Positions 425 through 6,447 of a stretch of 10,588 nucleotides of DNA are shown here, piece by piece. The DNA is from a virus. Lineage: Duplodnaviria; Heunggongvirae; Uroviricota; Caudoviricetes. The number at the start of each line of letters is the position of its first letter. Within the stretch, counting starts at the first letter, position 1. The DNA is taken from the IMG/VR virus record IMGVR_UViG_2690316175_000006; one strand, written 5' to 3'. Position numbers and translations under genes: made by a program. Below the pieces are notes generated by a model, which saw only the letters and a list, made by a program, of their open reading frames with translations, was not told where the DNA came from and did not search any database.

Positions 425-765
425 CGACTTTTACCAGAGAGCAGTTAATAGCTCACGCAGAGGAGACTATTGAAGCACAGAGACTGTGCATACCGGGCAC
501 AATCGACCATGACATCATCCGCACATATAAGATGGATATTGCTGTTCTGGAAATCGCACTGGTATCGCTGGCAGCAGAGCCAGCCGGTAAATTGCATGAA
601 TACAAACCAGTGGGATATCAGCGTCTGGTCGATGAGTTAACCATGCTGGTAAAGCAGTTAACCTGGCAACTGAGGAAAGCGAAGCCAGACTGCAAATTAC
701 CGGATAAGGCGATGAGTTATCTGGAGCGGAACGGACTGATAAGCGTGGAGGATATTTTACGATGA
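421..765 (+). CDS. Hypothetical lambdoid-prophage accessory protein (114 aa)
   Basis: ATG-initiated ORF with ATGA overlaps to the genes on both sides; N-terminal motif shared with the 257 and 1540 ORFs. Confidence 0.6.
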
Positions 766-845
766 CCTGGCCTGAAGCATTAACAACGGTAGGAATTGCG
801 ATGGCGGTGGCGCTGGTGGTGTATTCGATTTGCCGCTGGGGATAA
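762..845 (+). CDS. 27-aa hydrophobic peptide with one predicted transmembrane helix ([27 protein letters not shown])
   Basis: ATGA overlap with upstream gene; near-identical copy at 2567-2650 with only a few nucleotide changes. Confidence 0.45.
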
Positions 846-898
846 AAACGGTTTGCGGGAAAAGGAGAGTTAAGTAGAATTGCAGCGGGTGCTTGAGG

Positions 899-935
899 CT
901 ATCTGTCTCAGGCATGAACACCAAAAGGCAGATAG
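899..935 (+). promoter_or_regulatory. hok leader stem-loop (10-bp stem, 17-nt loop), copy 1
   Basis: ctatctgtct pairs with aggcagatag (one G-U); the paralogous stem at 2868-2903 differs at two positions that both preserve pairing. Confidence 0.45.
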
Positions 936-999
936 AGAAAAGCCCCAGTTAACATTACGCGTCCGGCAAGACGCTTAACATTAATCTGAGGCTCAATCT

Positions 1000-1212
1000 A
1001 TGAACGGCAAATCTAGGTTAGCCTCTTACGTGCCGAAAGGCAAGGAGAAGCAGGCTATGAAGCAGCAAAAGGCGATGTTAATCGCCCTGATCGTCATCTG
1101 TTTAACCGTCATAGTGACGGCACTGGTAACGAGGAAAGACCTCTGCGAGGTACGAATTCGAACCGGCCAGACGGAGGTCGCTGTCTTCACAGCTTACGAA
1201 CCTGAGGAGTAA
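1000..1212 (+). CDS. mok: Mok-like leader ORF in frame with and containing hok (70 aa), copy 1
   Basis: Upstream in-frame ATG giving an N-terminally extended Hok, as recalled for chromosomal mok/hok loci. Confidence 0.45.
   Translation: MNGKSRLASYVPKGKEKQAMKQQKAMLIALIVICLTVIVTALVTRKDLCEVRIRTGQTEVAVFTAYEPEE
1057..1212 (+). CDS. hok: Hok/Gef-family type I toxin, 51 aa, HokD/RelF-like, copy 1
   Basis: MKQQKAMLIALIVICLTVIVTALVTRKDLCEVRIRTGQTEVAVFTAYEPEE: single TM helix plus conserved RKDLCEV...TEVAVFTAYE core; AGGAG 9 nt upstream. Confidence 0.85.
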   Translation: MKQQKAMLIALIVICLTVIVTALVTRKDLCEVRIRTGQTEVAVFTAYEPEE

Positions 1213-1280
1213 GAGACCAGGCGGGGGAGAAATCCCTCGCCACCTCTGATGGGTCAGGCATCCTCAATGCACCCACACTT

Positions 1281-1307
1281 AACCCGCTTCGGCGGGTTTT
1301 TGTTTTT
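1281..1307 (+). terminator. Rho-independent terminator of hok copy 1
   Basis: aacccgc-ttcg-gcgggtt hairpin followed by a T-run. Confidence 0.7.
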
Positions 1308-1320
1308 ATTTTCAACGCGT

Positions 1321-1350
1321 TTGAAGTTTTAGATGGTGCCGGAATAGAAT
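1321..1350 (+). promoter_or_regulatory. Candidate sigma70 promoter downstream of hok copy 1
   Basis: TTGAAG-18 nt-TAGAAT; the -35 lies within inverted half-sites TTCAA/TTGAA; identical copy at 3289-3318. Confidence 0.4.
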
Positions 1351-1432
1351 CAAAAATACTTAAGTAGCGCGCAGGGAGAAGAGGGATGGACCCCGAACAG
1401 GGGAGTGCTATTTATCTGGAAGGATTCTGTTG

Positions 1433-1543
1433 ATNCTTGCGTCCGGGAAAGGCAAAGCGCTGGTTCGTATGGGATTGGTTGAAATGAAATCTGACCCGGT
1501 TGTGTTCTGGTTTGAAAAATATCAAGAAGGGGCTACGGCATGA
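1433..1543 (+). CDS. 36-aa ORF, valid only if the ambiguous base at 1435 is G
   Basis: ATN after GGAAGG RBS; the paralogous position 3401-3403 is ATG; ends ...[15 protein letters not shown] with ATGA overlap to the 1540 gene. Confidence 0.3.
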   Translation, partial: XLASGKGKALVRMGLVEMKSDPVVFWFEKYQEGATA

Positions 1544-2205
1544 CCACTATTACCAAAGAGCGACTGCAATGGCTGGCTAACATTTCTGGCCGCGATGATA
1601 TTGACGATATAGACGGCGGTGAAATTCGTGAACTGGCGCTTATCGCTCTGGCATCACTGGAAGCAGAGCCTGTAGCGGAATGCATTGTTGAAGATGGGGG
1701 CATGTGTATTGACGGGTTCGGTGAGTATGTGGGTCACTCGCTGCCTGATGGAATGCATGAGCTTTATGCTGCCCCGCGAATGCGACAACCTGATGGATGG
1801 AAAGCCGTAGCTGTAGCGTGGAAGGTGACGTTTACTCAAGTTGACCAGGAATCTAATACGTTCACTGCTATATATTTTGACAAAGCGGAAGTTGAGTGTT
1901 GGGTACGACTGCATAAAGCATGTGATTTTCGGGCAGATATAACACCGCTTTACGCAGCGCCGGCAGTGCCGGTTGCAGTAAACGACGACATGGCTTACGC
2001 ATTCCATCACGCACTGTCAGATTCATCGCTTGGCTCTGATGAAATCGAAGAAATTAAAACCGGTTTGCGTGCTGCCTTTGCCAACGTCACTATCCAACCA
2101 GAGCCGATAGTGCCGGATGAAATCGGGCCAAACGATAGTAATACGTTTGATTATGTTGATGGCTGGAACGCCTGCCGCGCTGCCATGCTTAAGGGAGATA
2201 AATAA
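1540..2205 (+). CDS. Hypothetical lambdoid-prophage accessory protein (221 aa)
   Basis: ATG-initiated ORF, coupled at both ends (ATGA upstream, TAATG downstream). Confidence 0.65.
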   Translation: MTTITKERLQWLANISGRDDIDDIDGGEIRELALIALASLEAEPVAECIVEDGGMCIDGFGEYVGHSLPDGMHELYAAPRMRQPDGWKAVAVAWKVTFTQVDQESNTFTAIYFDKAEVECWVRLHKACDFRADITPLYAAPAVPVAVNDDMAYAFHHALSDSSLGSDEIEEIKTGLRAAFANVTIQPEPIVPDEIGPNDSNTFDYVDGWNACRAAMLKGDK

Positions 2206-2570
2206 TGATTAATCGAACCAAACTGGAGCACATTCTCGAATATGCCAGGCAGCAGAAATGTATTGGGCAACTTTGTAAAATTCCACCAGGAGATATGGTT
2301 GAAATCGTGGAAATGGCCATGCGTAAGGCTGGCAACTCTCCGGTAGCTCCGGCTGGCTGGATAAGCTGTAGTGATGCAGTTCCTGCTGAATATTGCGATG
2401 TGATTCTTCTCGATGATCTCGGGAATGTATTCCCCGGTTCCTGGGATAAGGTTTTTTGCCCCACTCGTGGCGGGAATAAGATGGCTTTTGTGGACAAAGA
2501 CGGCGTTGAAGTAGAGAGCTCAACTCACTGGATGCCGCTACCGGAACCACCGCAGGAGGTGAATCAATGA
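2205..2570 (+). CDS. Hypothetical phage protein (121 aa), DUF551-like
   Basis: GGGAG RBS; C-terminal ...STHWMPLPEPP resembles the DUF551 phage family from memory, not verified. Confidence 0.55.
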   Translation: MINRTKLEHILEYARQQKCIGQLCKIPPGDMVEIVEMAMRKAGNSPVAPAGWISCSDAVPAEYCDVILLDDLGNVFPGSWDKVFCPTRGGNKMAFVDKDGVEVESSTHWMPLPEPPQEVNQ

Positions 2571-2650
2571 CCTGGCCTGAGGCATTCACCACGGTAGGAA
2601 TTGCGATGGCGGTGGCGCTGGTGGTGTATTCGATTTGCCGTTGGGGTTAA
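2567..2650 (+). CDS. 27-aa hydrophobic peptide, second copy ([27 protein letters not shown])
   Basis: ATGA overlap with the upstream gene; paralog of 762-845. Confidence 0.45.
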   Translation: MTWPEAFTTVGIAMAVALVVYSICRWG

Positions 2651-2655
2651 CAAAC

Positions 2656-2688
2656 AAAAACCCCGGATTGATGGTCCGGGGTTTTTGA
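2656..2688. terminator. Bidirectional rho-independent terminator
   Basis: A-run, ccccgga-ttgatgg-tccgggg hairpin, T-run. Confidence 0.65.
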
Positions 2689-2867
2689 AGGAAACAAAAC
2701 AGAAACAGCAATTGCCGTTACCTGTTGTTACCATGGCAAGTAAACGTATCTCAGGCGAGCGCATTGCGCCGTTCTGACGCAGATAAACTAGCCTGGATAG
2801 ATGGTGCTGGCAATAAAAAATAGCGTTTTCTTATCGGTGTCGGTAAGATTGCTGCGGGTGCTTGAGG

Positions 2868-2903
2868 CTGTCTGCCTCGGGTATGTCACTGTAAGGCAGA
2901 CAG
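2868..2903 (+). promoter_or_regulatory. hok leader stem-loop (perfect 10-bp stem), copy 2
   Basis: ctgtctgcct pairs with aggcagacag; covaries with the copy 1 stem. Confidence 0.45.
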
Positions 2904-2967
2904 AGAAAAGCCCCAGTTAACATTACGCGTCCTGCAAGACGCTTAACATTAATCTGAGGCCCAATCT

Positions 2968-3180
2968 ATGTCTCACAAATGTAGGTTAGCCTCTTACGTG
3001 CCGAAAGGCAAGGAGAAGCAGGCTATGAAGCAGCAAAAGGCGATGTTAATCGCCCTGATCGTCATCTGTTTAACCGTCATAGTGACGGCACTGGTAACGA
3101 GGAAAGACCTCTGCGAGGTACGAATTCGAACCGGCCAGACGGAGGTCGCTGTCTTCACAGCTTACGAACCTGAGGAGTAA
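2968..3180 (+). CDS. mok: Mok-like leader ORF in frame with hok (70 aa), copy 2
   Basis: Same architecture as 1000-1212; codons 2-5 differ (SHKC vs NGKS). Confidence 0.45.
   Translation: MSHKCRLASYVPKGKEKQAMKQQKAMLIALIVICLTVIVTALVTRKDLCEVRIRTGQTEVAVFTAYEPEE
3025..3180 (+). CDS. hok: Hok/Gef-family type I toxin, 51 aa, copy 2
   Basis: ORF identical to 1057-1212. Confidence 0.85.
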   Translation: MKQQKAMLIALIVICLTVIVTALVTRKDLCEVRIRTGQTEVAVFTAYEPEE

Positions 3181-3248
3181 GAGACCAGGCGGGGGAGAAA
3201 TCCCTCGCCACCTCTGATGGGTCAGGCATCCTCAATGCACCCACACTT

Positions 3249-3275
3249 AACCCGCTTCGGCGGGTTTTTGTTTTT
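3249..3275 (+). terminator. Rho-independent terminator of hok copy 2
   Basis: Identical hairpin and T-run to 1281-1307. Confidence 0.7.
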
Positions 3276-3288
3276 ATTTTCAACGCGT

Positions 3289-3318
3289 TTGAAGTTTTAG
3301 ATGGTGCCGGAATAGAAT
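3289..3318 (+). promoter_or_regulatory. Candidate sigma70 promoter downstream of hok copy 2
   Basis: TTGAAG-18 nt-TAGAAT, identical to 1321-1350. Confidence 0.4.
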
Positions 3319-3400
3319 CAAAAATACTTAAGTAGCGCGCAGGGAGAAGAGGGATGGACCCCGAACAGGGGAGTGCTATTTATCTGGAAGGATTCTGTTG

Positions 3401-3756
3401 ATGAAAATCGAAGAATTACGTGAAATTTTTAGTGAAGATGGCCTCTATACTGTGCGCGTTGAGAATGGCGCTATTGTCAGCCACTGCCTTCCAGACTACA
3501 CAATTCTGATAATTCAGCCGTCTTTGCCAGCAGGCACGGGCGGCGCTCTCACGCATTTAAATCTGATTGGTACCAGCATCCCCCATGCACTGAAGAACAG
3601 GCCGAATGGCTCATTCAGTGTTACCGCAGGCGCGGATGCGAGGTTAAAAAAGCCCTTAGCCTCGACTACCGTCACTGGATAATCTCCGTCAGGCTCCCTT
3701 ACTCCGAACGGCCAACGCGTCCGTCCCGCACATTCCAGCAACGGATCTGGAGGTAA
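3401..3756 (+). CDS. Hypothetical protein whose full length (about 118 aa) needs a -1 frameshift at 3646-3652; the 0-frame product ends at 3682
   Basis: ATG after GGAAGG RBS; A_AAA_AAG heptamer in the 0 frame; the -1 frame has no start codon, is open to TAA 3754-3756 and that stop is coupled to the next gene. Confidence 0.45.
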
Positions 3757-3757
3757 T

Positions 3758-4816
3758 GTGCGGGTATTACTTCGACCTGTTCTGGTACCGGAACTCGGTC
3801 TGGTTATCGTTAAGCCAGGCCGTGAATCAATGTCAGCATTCCATAACGGCAGAATACTGGTGGAGCCGGAACCAAAAAGCATGCGTAATCTGCCGTCCGG
3901 GGTCGTTCCTGCCGCTCGCCAGCCGCTGGTGGAAGACAAAACATTGCTGCCGTTTTTCAGTAACGCACGGGTGATTCGTGCTGCTGGTGGTGCTGGTGCA
4001 TTGTCTGACTGGCTGTTGCGCCATATTAAATCCTGCCAGTGGCCACACGGCGATTATCATCACAGCGAAACCGTCATTCACCGTTATGGTACCGGCGCAA
4101 TGGTGTTGTGCTGGCACTGCGACAACCAGCTGCGTGACCAGACATCCGAATCACTCGAGCAACTTGCTCATCAAAACCTGTCAGCATGGATGATTGACGT
4201 CATCGGTCACGCAATAAGCGGTACGCAGGAGCGTGAATTATCTCTGGCTGAATTATCCTGGTGGGCGGTCCGCAATCAGGTGGCGGACGCGCTACCGGAA
4301 GCGGTATTACGTCGTTCGCTGGGGTTGCGTGCGGAAAAAATTCGCTCTGTGTACAGTGAAAGCGACATCATACCGGGAGAGCAGACAGCCACCAGCATAC
4401 TGAAGCAGCGCACAAAAAATATTGCGTTACTGCCTCACGTCCACCAGCAACAGAACCCACCACAGGAAAAGACGGTGGTCAGCATTGCCGTTGATCCGGA
4501 GTCACCGGCTCAGTATCTCCAGCGCCAGAAATCACAACGGGAAGAGATGCCTGTATACACGCGCTGGGTAAAAACGCAGAAATGCATGACGTGTGGCAAT
4601 CAGGCAGATGATCCGCATCACATCATTGGTCATGGACTGGGAGGGATGGGAACAAAGGCTGATGATTTGTTTGTTATTCCGTTATGCCGTAAATGCCGTA
4701 ACGAACTACATGCCGGAGTAAAAGATTTTGAAGAGAAACACGGCAGTCAGCTGTTGTTGCTGATTCGTTTTTTAATGCACGCGAGAAATTCGGGTGTTCT
4801 GAAGTGGAAAGCATAA
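3758..4816 (+). CDS. DUF968-like prophage protein with a C-terminal HNH/zinc-ribbon-like motif (YdfU-like)
   Basis: GTG start 5 nt after GGAGG; C-terminus CMTCGNQADDPHHIIGHG...LCRKCRNELH; sits just upstream of rusA and Q as in lambdoid prophages. Confidence 0.6.
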   Translation: MRVLLRPVLVPELGLVIVKPGRESMSAFHNGRILVEPEPKSMRNLPSGVVPAARQPLVEDKTLLPFFSNARVIRAAGGAGALSDWLLRHIKSCQWPHGDYHHSETVIHRYGTGAMVLCWHCDNQLRDQTSESLEQLAHQNLSAWMIDVIGHAISGTQERELSLAELSWWAVRNQVADALPEAVLRRSLGLRAEKIRSVYSESDIIPGEQTATSILKQRTKNIALLPHVHQQQNPPQEKTVVSIAVDPESPAQYLQRQKSQREEMPVYTRWVKTQKCMTCGNQADDPHHIIGHGLGGMGTKADDLFVIPLCRKCRNELHAGVKDFEEKHGSQLLLLIRFLMHARNSGVLKWKA

Positions 4817-5197
4817 ATGACCGAGCGCATAGAATTTGTTTTACCTTACCCGCCGACGGTGAACACTTACTGGCGTCGTCGTGGCAGCACATATTTTGTA
4901 TCAAAAGCCGGGGAGCGTTATCGCCGGGCAGTGGCGCTTATTGTTCGCCAGCAGCGGCTGAAATTAAGCCTGTCCGGAAGGTTGGCAATAAAAATTATTG
5001 CAGAACCACCGGATAAGCGCCGCCGTGACCTGGACAATATTCTGAAAGCGCCGCTGGATGCGCTGACGCATGCGGGGTTGCTAATGGACGATGAGCAGTT
5101 TGATGAAATCAATATCGTTCGTGGTCAGCCAGTATCTGGTGGACGTCTGGGGGTGAAGATTTATCCCATAATGCTTGAAGGGCAGGTCAAAAAATGA
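4817..5197 (+). CDS. rusA: Crossover junction endodeoxyribonuclease RusA (Holliday junction resolvase)
   Basis: 126 aa with YPPTVNTYW and PDKRRRDLDN motifs matching the RusA catalytic region; stop overlaps the next start (ATGA). Confidence 0.85.
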   Translation: MTERIEFVLPYPPTVNTYWRRRGSTYFVSKAGERYRRAVALIVRQQRLKLSLSGRLAIKIIAEPPDKRRRDLDNILKAPLDALTHAGLLMDDEQFDEINIVRGQPVSGGRLGVKIYPIMLEGQVKK

Positions 5198-6015
5198 AAC
5201 TGGAAGATTTACCGAAATACTACTCCCCAAAATCCCCCGGCCTGACTGATGCATCGGCCTCAACGTCGAAAGATGCGCTGAGTATCACTGATGTGATGGC
5301 CGCGCAGGGCATGACACAGAATCGGGCTGAGATGGGGGTTTCTGCGTTCCTTGGGAAAATGGGCATTAGTATGAATGACAGAGAGCGGGCAACAGAATTG
5401 CTGACAGAATATGCACTCAGTCGGTGTGATCGCGTGGCGGCGTTAAGAAAACTCCCGGCAGAAATAAAACCGGCAGTGATGCGTATTATGGCTTCGTATG
5501 CGTTTGAAGATTATGCCCGTAGCGCGGCGAGCAAAAAACAGTGCCCCTGCTGTCACGGAAAAAAATTTATTGAAAGCGAGGTTTTTACAAACAAGATCCA
5601 GTATCCGGATGGTAAGCCGCCGGTATGGGCAAAGTGTACGAAAGGTGTGTATCCGTCTTACTGGGAAGAATGGAAAAAAGTCAGGGAGGTGGTAAAAGTT
5701 GCCTGTCCGGAGTGTGGCGGAAAGGGTGAGGTTTCCACCGCCTGTAAGGATTGCCGTGGGCGTGGTGTCGCCATTCATCGTGAAGAGTCGGTAAAACGTG
5801 GTATGCCTGTTATCAGAGACTGCCAGCGTTGTGGTGGTCGTGGCTATGAAAGACTACCATCAACGGAGGCATTTAATGCTATATGCGAGGTGACAAACCA
5901 GATAACACGCGCGTCATGGGAAAAAACAGTTAAGAAATTTTATGATGCGCTGGTGACCCGGTTTGATATTGAAGAAGCATGGGCTGAGCGGCAGTTAAAA
6001 AAGGTAACTAGGTAA
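5194..6015 (+). CDS. Late-gene antiterminator Q-like protein (QuuQ-like) with four CxxCxGxG zinc-finger repeats
   Basis: Position directly after rusA and directly before a promoter-terminator pair; CPCCHGKK, CPECGGKG, CKDCRGRG, CQRCGGRG motifs. Confidence 0.55.
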   Translation: MKLEDLPKYYSPKSPGLTDASASTSKDALSITDVMAAQGMTQNRAEMGVSAFLGKMGISMNDRERATELLTEYALSRCDRVAALRKLPAEIKPAVMRIMASYAFEDYARSAASKKQCPCCHGKKFIESEVFTNKIQYPDGKPPVWAKCTKGVYPSYWEEWKKVREVVKVACPECGGKGEVSTACKDCRGRGVAIHREESVKRGMPVIRDCQRCGGRGYERLPSTEAFNAICEVTNQITRASWEKTVKKFYDALVTRFDIEEAWAERQLKKVTR

Positions 6016-6054: not shown

Positions 6055-6120
6055 AACTATGGGCGTTTTATGCCTGACGTTAGAAGAGTTTCTACAACCC
6101 GCCGCCGAGCGGGTTTTTTA
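6055..6120 (+). ncRNA. Short PR'-to-tR' transcript (about 66 nt), candidate small RNA
   Basis: Inferred from the promoter at 6021-6048 and terminator at 6097-6120; analogous to lambda 6S-type RNA. Confidence 0.35.
6097..6120 (+). terminator. tR'-like rho-independent terminator
   Basis: acccgc-cgccga-gcgggt hairpin followed by a T-run. Confidence 0.65.
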
Positions 6121-6239: not shown

Positions 6240-6437
6240 ATGCTAAAACAGCAGGATATGACAGAAACCGCCAGAGTGGTGTTTAATGAATTAAGCGTTA
6301 CCGAACCGGCGACAGTCGGGGAGATAGCGCAGAATACTTACCTTTCACGCGAACGCTGCCAGTTAATACTGACCCAGCTGGTTATGGCGGGTCTGGCAGA
6401 CTATCAGTTCGGTTGTTACAGACGCCTTCCGCAGTGA
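6240..6437 (+). CDS. Small (65 aa) putative helix-turn-helix DNA-binding protein
   Basis: AAGGA RBS 7 nt upstream; segment ATVGEIAQNTYLSRERCQLILTQLVMAGLA looks like a winged-helix HTH. Confidence 0.45.
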   Translation: MLKQQDMTETARVVFNELSVTEPATVGEIAQNTYLSRERCQLILTQLVMAGLADYQFGCYRRLPQ

Positions 6438-6447
6438 AGGCTTTTTT
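6424..6447 (+). terminator. Rho-independent terminator overlapping the stop of the 6240 ORF
   Basis: gccttc-cgcagt-gaaggc hairpin followed by TTTTTT. Confidence 0.5.

Follow-up and report, generated by a model that had tools for sequence, protein, structure and literature searches.

The closest described relative of the locus analyzed here lies in the Qin prophage of Escherichia coli K-12, in which hokD, rem, ydfU, and ydfT (Q) follow one another. Rem is an antirepressor of DicA and relieves DicA-type repression in K-12 (Ragunathan and Vanderpool 2023, PMC10448788). In this sole functional paper on Rem, the gene was expressed from foreign promoters, the inducing signal was stated to be unknown, and the native rem promoter and leader were not analyzed. 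The start sites of rem are already in public tables, where they have gone unnoticed. A second comparison is offered by the LexA-controlled antirepressors of the Salmonella Gifsy prophages and the isrK-orf45-anrP genes of Gifsy-1 (PMC4825925), where a small antirepressor is likewise expressed from a promoter of its own that lies near Q and outside the immunity region. The antirepressor mRNA of Gifsy-1 is made but remains translationally silent behind an upstream open reading frame (ORF) (PMC4825925). The third relative is the hok/sok system of plasmid R1, with its Hok ORF, overlapping mok, sok-target leader, 5′–3′ (tac–fbi) pairing, and terminator. Lambdoid phages as a group have mosaic module boundaries.

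The window, meaning the whole stretch of DNA that was analyzed (10,588 nucleotides of the IMG/VR virus record IMGVR_UViG_2690316175_000006), carries two hok/sok cassettes, each followed by the same block of 126 nt. It shares with Qin the gene order, the –35, the –10, and the leader, and DNA identity is 91% over the hok 3′ UTR, the block, and the rem start (the block plus the first 66–88 nt of the ORF, compared with K-12 hokD-rem). In K-12, however, relBE replaces the hok leader and sok, rem is intact, and rusA is absent, whereas in the window the hok/sok cassettes are complete, rem is broken by a 250-bp deletion, and part of the scaffold is apparently duplicated.

The reading favored here, at a probability of roughly 0.78, is that the block is the promoter and leader of rem, lying outside hok/sok, and that copy 1 is the same locus appearing twice through scaffold reuse of a collapsed repeat. 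It draws on repeat anatomy, homology, absence of the copy-1 junction elsewhere, start sites at homologous loci, and promoter conservation. The block would thus comprise a sigma-70 promoter and the 75-nt leader of rem, with no part in hok/sok, and Rem, a small antirepressor, would inactivate the DicA-type repressor of Qin-like lambdoid prophages. In the native and widespread order, hok/sok is followed by the rem promoter (P_rem) and leader, rem, an ORF of 92 amino acids (aa), DUF968 (ydfU), sometimes rusA, and Q; copy 2 has this layout, except that its rem has been destroyed by the deletion. For copy 1, the scaffolder would have used a collapsed 421-bp stretch twice and set between the two uses a contig that stems from a different prophage and carries HNH′, a 221-aa ORF, DUF551, and the left end of a hok cassette; a single N at 1435 would mark the contig join. 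Since the block would belong to rem and the copy-1 fusion most likely reflects joined contigs, the finding is for the most part ordinary.

The two cassettes have the following parts:

874–1308, plus strand: hok/sok copy 1 (Rfam sok match, terminator scan, alignment to copy 2)
875–880, plus strand: –10 of the hok mRNA promoter, copy 1; mRNA from about 887
1000–1212, plus strand: mok, copy 1
1057–1212, plus strand: hok coding sequence, copy 1
about 1260–1273, plus strand: fbi, copy 1
1281–1298, plus strand: terminator hairpin, copy 1
2843–3276, plus strand: hok/sok copy 2 (Rfam sok, HOK_GEF PF01848, mRNA fold)
2856 to about 3276, plus strand: hok mRNA, copy 2
2968–3180, plus strand: mok, copy 2
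3025–3180, plus strand: hok coding sequence, copy 2
about 3228–3241, plus strand: fbi, copy 2
3249–3266, plus strand: terminator, copy 2

Both match the Rfam sok family RF01794 far above its gathering score of 59 (112.4 bits at 887–1062 and 118.1 bits at 2856–3030), and the Hok ORF at 3025–3180 matches Pfam PF01848 HOK_GEF with E = 1.2e-23; in relatives, these genes are annotated hokD. The hok mRNA folds closed by itself: in the folded copy-2 mRNA (2856–3276), nucleotides 1–12 pair with the fbi element, next to the terminator hairpin (z = –6.55). The features named above for the R1 system are shared by the cassettes, but the block lies outside the cassette, past the terminator, and is co-inherited with rem rather than hok. 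A relation of the hok 3′ UTR (3189–3270) to IsrK was considered and rejected, as the match to RF01394 reaches 25.7 bits, below the gathering score of 50, and consists mostly of the terminator.

The block and its surroundings can be laid out as follows:

1309–1434, plus strand: block copy 1, rem promoter and leader to the AT of the start codon (identical to 3277–3402)
1321–1326, plus strand: –35, copy 1
1345–1350, plus strand: –10, copy 1
1358, plus strand: start-site equivalent, copy 1
3289–3318, plus strand: rem promoter, –35 TTGAAG at 3289–3294, 18-nt spacer, –10 TAGAAT at 3313–3318 (consensus scan and conservation)
3326–3400, plus strand: rem 5′ leader from A3326 (homologous start sites and leader conservation)
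within the leader, plus strand: invariant CTTAAGTAGCGCGCAGGGAGAAGAGGGATGG
3354, plus strand: ATG of a short upstream ORF
3359–3362 and 3368–3371, plus strand: CCCC and GGGG of a hairpin
3386–3391, plus strand: ribosome-binding site (RBS) GGAAGG
3401–3682, plus strand: truncated rem, Rem codons 1–29 and then fused out of frame to the next gene (alignment and BLAST coordinates)

The sigma-70 promoter in the block is real. Its TTGAAG-18-TAGAAT agrees with the consensus at 9 of 12 positions, and the pattern by itself is not above chance (three sites found, 3.6 expected in shuffles), so its weight comes from conservation and mapped start sites. These start sites come from homologous loci of two other strains, EDL933 and K-12. 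In E. coli O157:H7 EDL933, Cappable-seq places a 5′-triphosphate start at 1854800 (position 5801 of locus L242), equivalent to A3326 of the window, although EDL933 has several similar blocks, so its reads may be multi-mapped. EDL933 and the window do not differ from the –10 through the ATG; in the promoter spacer they differ at five positions. In K-12, RegulonDB lists rem start sites 70 and 73 nt upstream of the gene, at most 2 nt from the EDL933 equivalent; the Romero 2014 table lists only a ydfU-rem intergenic transcript for the region. As for conservation, 151 loci have the conserved leader core, and 150 of them keep TAGAAT; in the exception (L151), an IS1 end falls within the –10. The –35 comes from about eight different upstream contexts, as TTGAAG, TTGAGC, TTGATT, TTGATA, TTGAGG, or TTAACT at 16 or 18 nt, and some loci with the invariant TAGAAT have no adjoining hok cassette. 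The sequence-only reading had proposed this promoter with a start near 3325, and on this point it holds up well.

One could argue instead that the block is mere transcribed spacer, its hexamers due to chance, and that rem and Q depend wholly on read-through of upstream transcripts (from pR or hok). The chance-level hexamer score agrees with this, as does the classical picture in which transcription of the lambdoid nin region starts at pR. But Cappable-seq enriches 5′-triphosphate ends and puts a start 8 nt past TAGAAT in six of eight conditions, with K-12 in agreement; a strong terminator from the terminator scan sits immediately upstream of the promoter; and the –10 has been retained while the DNA upstream of it was swapped. 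The spacer explanation is thus very improbable. No better is the proposal of the sequence-only reading that the block belongs to hok/sok and moves with it, bringing an outward promoter that makes hok cassettes portable expression units. The promoter is indeed real, and among 189 hok 3′ ends the block directly follows the terminator in 95. In 88 of them, however, neither the block (3277–3402) nor rem is present, so that co-inheritance with the cassette does not hold; homology of the cassette stops at the terminator (e.g., at 1.90 Mb of EDL933 and in FDAARGOS_944), and at least 15 other sequences are found downstream of hok cassettes. Conversely, rem with TAGAAT and the leader is also found behind unrelated, non-hok sequence. 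In the sampled loci, the ORF directly behind an intact block is always rem or a small ORF resembling it (a 55-aa form is weakly similar); the sole sampled exception, L120, is a deletion that removed rem and most of the leader. In independent genomes, no intact block was found before unrelated genes, the only instance being the N-bearing junction of copy 1.

The copy-1 junction bears on the second half of the favored reading and needs these features:

1435, no strand: single N, probable scaffold join (matches break at 1434 and 1436)
1436–1543, plus strand: 3′ fragment of an HNH endonuclease gene, codon 87 to stop, equal to the 36-aa ORF (100% match to L001 3001–3108)
1436–2981, plus strand: extra piece between the two uses of the repeat (98.6% and collinear with L001 3001–4838, an FDAARGOS_944 prophage)
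1540–2205, plus strand: 221-aa ORF
2205–2570, plus strand: DUF551 (Pfam)
2567–2650, plus strand: 27-aa membrane ORF, followed within the extra piece by the 5′ part of hok copy 2

As the sequence-only reading had noted, the same block with TTGAAG-18-TAGAAT follows each hok and ends at GGAAGG-9 nt-ATG; alignment and consensus scan confirm this. Alignment of the copies gives an exact repeat of 421 bp (1014–1434 and 2982–3402, 100% identical), with the promoter hexamers at 1321–1350 and 3289–3318, inverted half-sites in copy 1 (TTCAA at 1311–1315, TTGAA at 1321–1325), and, in copy 2, GGAAGG at 3386–3391 followed by 9 nt and the ATG at 3401–3403. Identity ends after GTTGAT, just past GGAAGG-9 nt-AT; beyond it, copy 1 continues as the N at 1435 and CTTGCG, and copy 2 as GAAAATCG. 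The 36-aa ORF of copy 1 requires the N to be G. Its match in L001 lies within a 121-aa HNH gene (2743–3108), the full form of which matches Pfam HNH PF01844. On the favored reading, the 36-aa ORF is no more than the 3′ end of an HNH endonuclease gene.

The copy-1 fusion is most likely a scaffold mis-join, which the N would mark. The alternative is that the tandem arrangement is real: insertion or duplication brought the segment from HNH′ to the left part of hok next to the hok-rem junction, so that P_rem with its leader and ATG became fused to the final 35 HNH codons, and the N is a low-quality base. The HNH fragment is indeed in frame with the rem ATG, as a real gene fusion would be, while an accidental join has a 1-in-3 chance of looking the same. 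Lambdoid prophages are mosaic, recombination is promoted by short repeats (for example LASLEAEP, in repeat families D5 and D6), and the equally odd-looking 250-bp deletion in rem proved to be real in relatives. Nevertheless, the 1434/1436 junction is spanned by none of 5,426 complete E. coli genomes, and its pattern is absent from IMG/VR, the GTDB representatives, and metagenomes. The closest relatives (L011 and L032, 99.7–99.9% identical and sharing the same rare rem deletion) have one hok and lack the extra piece, position 1434 continuing directly into 3403. The N falls exactly on the junction, and the other single N of the window (9658) also lies on a junction found nowhere else, where the interior of IS600 meets a duplicated repeat; L032 is without that piece. 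Finally, 100% identity over the flanking 421 bp is expected if one contig was used twice. A real fusion is accordingly unlikely, if less so than the two explanations weighed before it, and the claim that the module is fused to unrelated genes would lose its only example. A scaffold in which a collapsed repeat was used twice can give such an appearance, and a single N at a homology break is a warning sign.

Under the reading of the block as promoter and leader of rem, the sharp homology breaks at the hok terminator, in the promoter spacer, and after the leader hairpin are shared with the mosaic boundaries of lambdoid phages, whereas the copy-1 boundary at the ATG would be an assembly join and not a natural one. 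The ATG after the block is the conserved rem start. In relatives, similarity extends about 70–90 nt or more past it, into rem, contrary to the suggestion that the block ends at the ATG, an outcome that the sequence-only reading had itself named as refuting its idea; in some alleles, similarity ends inside the leader instead. The arrangement is common: hok-rem-orf92-ydfU is collinear over 927 nt in 93 of 123 hok loci from IMG/VR, and at least 80% of window positions 3181–3700 is covered in 1,147 of the 5,426 complete E. coli genomes.

The TTCAA/TTGAA half-sites were considered as an operator and rejected: they are absent from the alternative upstream contexts, so the promoter does not require them. 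A LexA-controlled promoter was rejected as well, since the SOS box (CTG-N10-CAG) has no match in 700–3900 and its five matches in the window all lie elsewhere. The lack of an SOS box at the rem promoter is one difference from Gifsy; another is that Gifsy-1 antQ is located upstream, not downstream, of isrK. Compared with Gifsy-1, rem has a promoter with activity in most conditions, and its leader has a conserved RBS and AUG that open a short upstream ORF.

This upstream ORF has 15 codons in the window, with its stop overlapping the rem ATG, 3 codons in K-12, and 8–11 in other alleles. As its length is not conserved, a conserved peptide was rejected. So was a conserved RNA structure, because the leader offers just the 4-bp CCCC/GGGG hairpin with zero covariation, and its single-sequence fold is no better than shuffles (z = –1.2). 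The first part of the leader is kept before divergent small Rem-type ORFs and behind interchangeable –35 modules. With the promoter firing in a lysogen under most growth conditions, Rem synthesis would need to be held off post-transcriptionally. A tentative and rather unlikely idea is that the invariant first 45 or so nucleotides of the leader (the invariant stretch, the CCCC-loop-GGGG hairpin, and the upstream RBS and AUG) may be a translational control element, resembling orf45 and IsrK for the Gifsy-1 antirepressor. If true, Rem-dependent induction of Qin-type prophages would have its missing input in the leader, and transcripts from P_rem could also extend to Q. With lysogen activity, a modular –35, and an unusually conserved leader, P_rem is a place to seek the induction signal of these prophages. 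Qin-type prophages are common in pathogenic E. coli, and the rem promoter and leader are a modest lead, not a surprise.

Three further genes follow rem and the 92-aa ORF:

3758–4816, plus strand: DUF968/ydfU (Pfam DUF968)
4817–5197, plus strand: rusA (Pfam RusA)
5194–6015, plus strand: antiterminator Q (Pfam Antiterm)

Alignment to K-12 Qin and two other genomes places the deletion that destroys the window's rem at 3488/3489, a junction shared by L011 and L032; the gene fused to the remnant encodes the 92-aa hypothetical protein. Pfam has no family for Rem or for the 92-aa, 221-aa, and 36-aa ORFs. The window ORF lacks full-length homology to K-12 Rem, keeping just the first 29 codons, so antirepressor function does not apply to this copy; the intact Rem of relatives is 59–73% identical to K-12 Rem, up to 73% over the full length. 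No strong intrinsic terminator was found by the scan between 3326 and 6015, the strong ones being at 6096–6115 and 6424–6441, and transcripts from P_rem may read through to Q.

The block that follows each hok gene is the promoter and leader of rem, the antirepressor gene of Qin-type prophages, already mapped though undiscussed, and the gene order around it is widespread and known. The window represents the nin-to-Q region of an E. coli lambdoid prophage. Its scaffold is flanked by IS3-family ends (1-47, 8520 onward and 10558-10588) and carries an N-run at 7943-7989, with single Ns at 1435 and 9658 only. From left to right, the window holds:

Small nin-region ORFs, the leftmost genes
hok/sok cassette (copy 1), after the nin-region ORFs
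HNH endonuclease gene fragment, 221-aa ORF and DUF551 gene, between both hok/sok cassettes
hok/sok cassette (copy 2), right of the DUF551 gene
94-aa ORF, DUF968, rusA and antiterminator Q, right of copy 2
DNA methylase, tRNAs and IS600, at the right end of the gene series

Both cassettes match the Rfam sok family (RF01794) at 112 and 118 bits, compared to a gathering score of 59, and each encodes a HOK_GEF protein. Their left sides are 84-97% identical, followed by exact identity over 421 bp (1014-1434 = 2982-3402) that spans the hok terminator (1281-1298; 3249-3266) and the 126 nt past it and breaks directly after ...GTTGAT. The sequence-only reading was thus right that a repeated block follows each hok, with a candidate promoter (TTGAAG-18-TAGAAT at 1321-1350 and 3289-3318) and GGAAGG-9 nt-ATG, although the hexamer match alone is not above chance (3 sites in the region vs 3.6 expected). 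In the fold of the hok RNA (2856-3276; z = -6.55), the 5' end pairs with the fbi element and the terminator hairpin forms the 3' end; the cassette is complete without the block. Upstream of both cassettes lies a conserved 27-aa hydrophobic ORF, MTWPEA(L/F)... (762-845 and 2567-2650; 93% identical DNA), which overlaps the stop codon of the gene before it.

Copy 2 shows the ordinary order of hok and rem. The stretch 3181-3468 is 91% identical to the Qin prophage of K-12, from the hokD 3' UTR through the intergenic block to 66 nt into rem. The canonical order (hokD, rem, a 92-aa ORF, DUF968 or ydfU, sometimes rusA, and Q) is found in 1,147 of 5,426 complete E. coli genomes, at a coverage of at least 80% of 3181-3700, as well as in temperate phages such as mEp460_ev081 and PhiR42_1. 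Among 123 IMG/VR loci retrieved via the hok terminator, 93 show this order, collinear throughout the 927 nt examined; in nearly all of the others, similarity extends 70-90 nt past the ATG before the rem alleles diverge. The block had been thought to end exactly at the ATG, but the identity in relatives runs well past it, an outcome that the sequence-only reading had itself named as speaking against its proposal.

The window's own rem is disrupted: at 3488/3489, a deletion of 250 bp puts the following gene (92-aa, upstream of DUF968) out of frame behind Rem codon 29, so that the antirepressor is inactivated. This deletion is genuine, and a lineage marker, because the same junction is present in two IMG/VR contigs, L011 and L032. 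Between rem and ydfU of K-12, a 123-nt intergenic transcript, “IGRSTe ydfU-rem,” has been reported at 1642532-1642655 of U00096.2 (PMC4681348 supplement); it overlaps the 92-aa gene of newer annotations and the hairpin GCAGGGCTGAACCCCTGC.

The promoter is well conserved. From TAGAAT to the ATG, the canonical locus of EDL933, an E. coli O157:H7 (EHEC) strain (hokD 1854499-1854654, rem homologue RS09645), has the window's sequence; its only differences are five spacer positions. A Cappable-seq table gives a start site for the rem homologue at 1854800 (+), detected during exponential growth in LB and M9 and in each of the four stationary-phase conditions, 6/8 in total (PMC10469882). It is the A of TAGAATCAAAAAT[A]C, 8 nt past the -10, and is equivalent to 3326 in the window (1358 in copy 1), compared to the ~3325 that had been predicted, so the candidate promoter is real. 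The start site lies 75 nt from the start codon in EHEC vs 70 and 73 nt for the K-12 rem sites in RegulonDB (PMC10469882, sheet 3). A second start site assigned to the homologue, 1854667 (5668 in our EDL933 locus L242), falls in the hairpin right after the hok stop codon and appears only in three stationary-phase conditions; at a separate EDL933 locus (1.90 Mb), the hok start site 1901548 is seen in 8/8 conditions.

TAGAAT is kept in 150 of the 151 loci with a conserved leader core, the sole exception having IS1 inserted in the -10. In that IMG/VR locus (L151), the IS1 end (...GTCATTACC / GAATCAAAAATAC) is ~70-75 nt upstream of a K-12-type rem start codon, and the match to a complete genome (H36) begins at this point too; this may be a sign of selection against the expression of rem. 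Upstream of the -10, about eight classes of DNA can be told apart, each with TTGAAG, TTGAGC, TTGATT, TTGATA, TTGAGG or TTAACT at 16 or 18 nt. No SOS box was found at the rem promoter, unlike the LexA-controlled Gifsy antirepressors.

The view of hok cassettes as portable expression units does not hold up. In a pool of 189 hok 3' ends from three IMG/VR scans, which is not free of bias, 95 are followed by the block and rem and 88 by neither. Six are ambiguous by exact-string matching: three have single-base or small-indel leader variants with rem still next, and three have the block before a 55-aa ORF weakly similar to a short Rem allele. At the 88 block-less loci, homology stops at the terminator and at least 15 different sequences come next, among them a YgiW-family gene in EDL933 (1.90 Mb). 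Rem and its leader also occur where the preceding sequence is unrelated to the window's, in some cases at least 1 kb downstream of a hok cassette. The ORFs directly behind an intact block are all small (83-86-aa and 57-aa forms with a common N-terminus, or the 55-aa form). Since hok ends occur without the block, the rem leader without an adjoining hok, and only small ORFs behind the block, the block is, by this comparison, part of rem and not of hok. In another IMG/VR locus, L120, a deletion running from just past the -10 (TAGAATCAAAAAT joined to CTTGCGCGGGG) to the hairpin between rem and orf92 takes out rem and most of the leader, leaving the rem promoter directly upstream of orf92-ydfU.

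The most likely explanation for the unrelated gene fused to copy 1 is an assembly artefact, a scaffold join. Right of N1435, the sequence is an exact match to codons 87-121 of an HNH endonuclease gene (121 aa) found in a complete genome (FDAARGOS_944 prophage, L001 3001-3108), and the 36-aa ORF said to begin at the copy 1 ATG is the tail of that gene. None of the 5,426 complete genomes spans the 1434/1436 junction, though 4,066 match one side or the other, and the pattern was not found in IMG/VR, the GTDB species representatives or 241 million metagenome records. L011 and L032, which have the rare rem deletion in common with the window and are 99.7-99.9% identical to 1-1434 and 3403 onward, carry a single hok, and in them 1434 continues straight into 3403. 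The stretch 1436-3273 runs collinear, at 98.6%, with another type of prophage, one with a full HNH gene. At N9658, internal sequence of a truncated, minus-strand IS600 (8520-9657) meets the second copy of a 126-bp repeat (8191-8316 and 9659-9784, inside an STnc100-like element); this junction is in none of the complete E. coli genomes, and the inserted piece is missing from L032. Both Ns follow the pattern of repeat, extra contig, N and repeat again, and N9658 looks like the same kind of artefact. A real, strain-specific rearrangement at the copy 1 junction is improbable; the HNH tail, the absent junction, the continuity in L011 and L032, the collinearity elsewhere and the parallel at N9658 all argue for the scaffold join.

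As to the suggestion that Q may be driven from the block, the broken rem, DUF968, rusA and Q are closely packed on one strand, no strong intrinsic terminator was found between 3326 and 6015, and the EDL933 table lists no other upstream start site until the methylase gene, so read-through from the rem promoter to Q would be possible.

The first ~45 nt of the rem leader hardly vary, also in loci with a different ribosome-binding region and ORF. The leaders have just one structure in common, a 4-bp CCCC/GGGG hairpin that shows no covariation. A conserved ribosome-binding site and AUG (3354) open an upstream ORF, which encodes no conserved peptide since its length varies from 3 to 15 codons. [quoted passage not shown] Because the promoter fires under most conditions in lysogens, control of rem after transcription would be a reasonable idea, echoing the Gifsy-1 isrK-orf45-anrP system, in which the antirepressor mRNA is made and not translated. 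The hok 3' UTR and terminator (3189-3270 and 1221-1302) give a weak match to Rfam isrK (RF01394), which at 25.7 bits vs a gathering score of 50 is below threshold, chiefly covers the terminator and is taken as a lead only. In Salmonella Gifsy-1, IsrK precedes the antirepressor gene, and the window's layout is reminiscent of this.

Some minor features were seen elsewhere in the window. The 55-aa ORF at 257-424 is chimera-like, its N-terminus being of the 221-aa ORF type (MTTITKER...LASLEAEP) and its tail that of the HNH gene. The recurring stretch that codes for LASLEAEP may be a hot spot for recombination here; the positions concerned are 257-424, 1485-1561 and 338-381/541-584/1630-1673. The form CTG-N10-CAG of the SOS/LexA box is matched by CTGTAAAAATATCCAG (6598-6613), located 10 nt into the DNA methylase gene (6588-7646). 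A four-tRNA cluster (7687-8072), split by the N-run, lies downstream of Q and the methylase, and IS600 comes after it, at the place where Stx phages have tRNAs and toxin genes. Two STnc100-like sRNA matches lie at 8152-8341 and 9621-9809 (123.6 and 81.6 bits).
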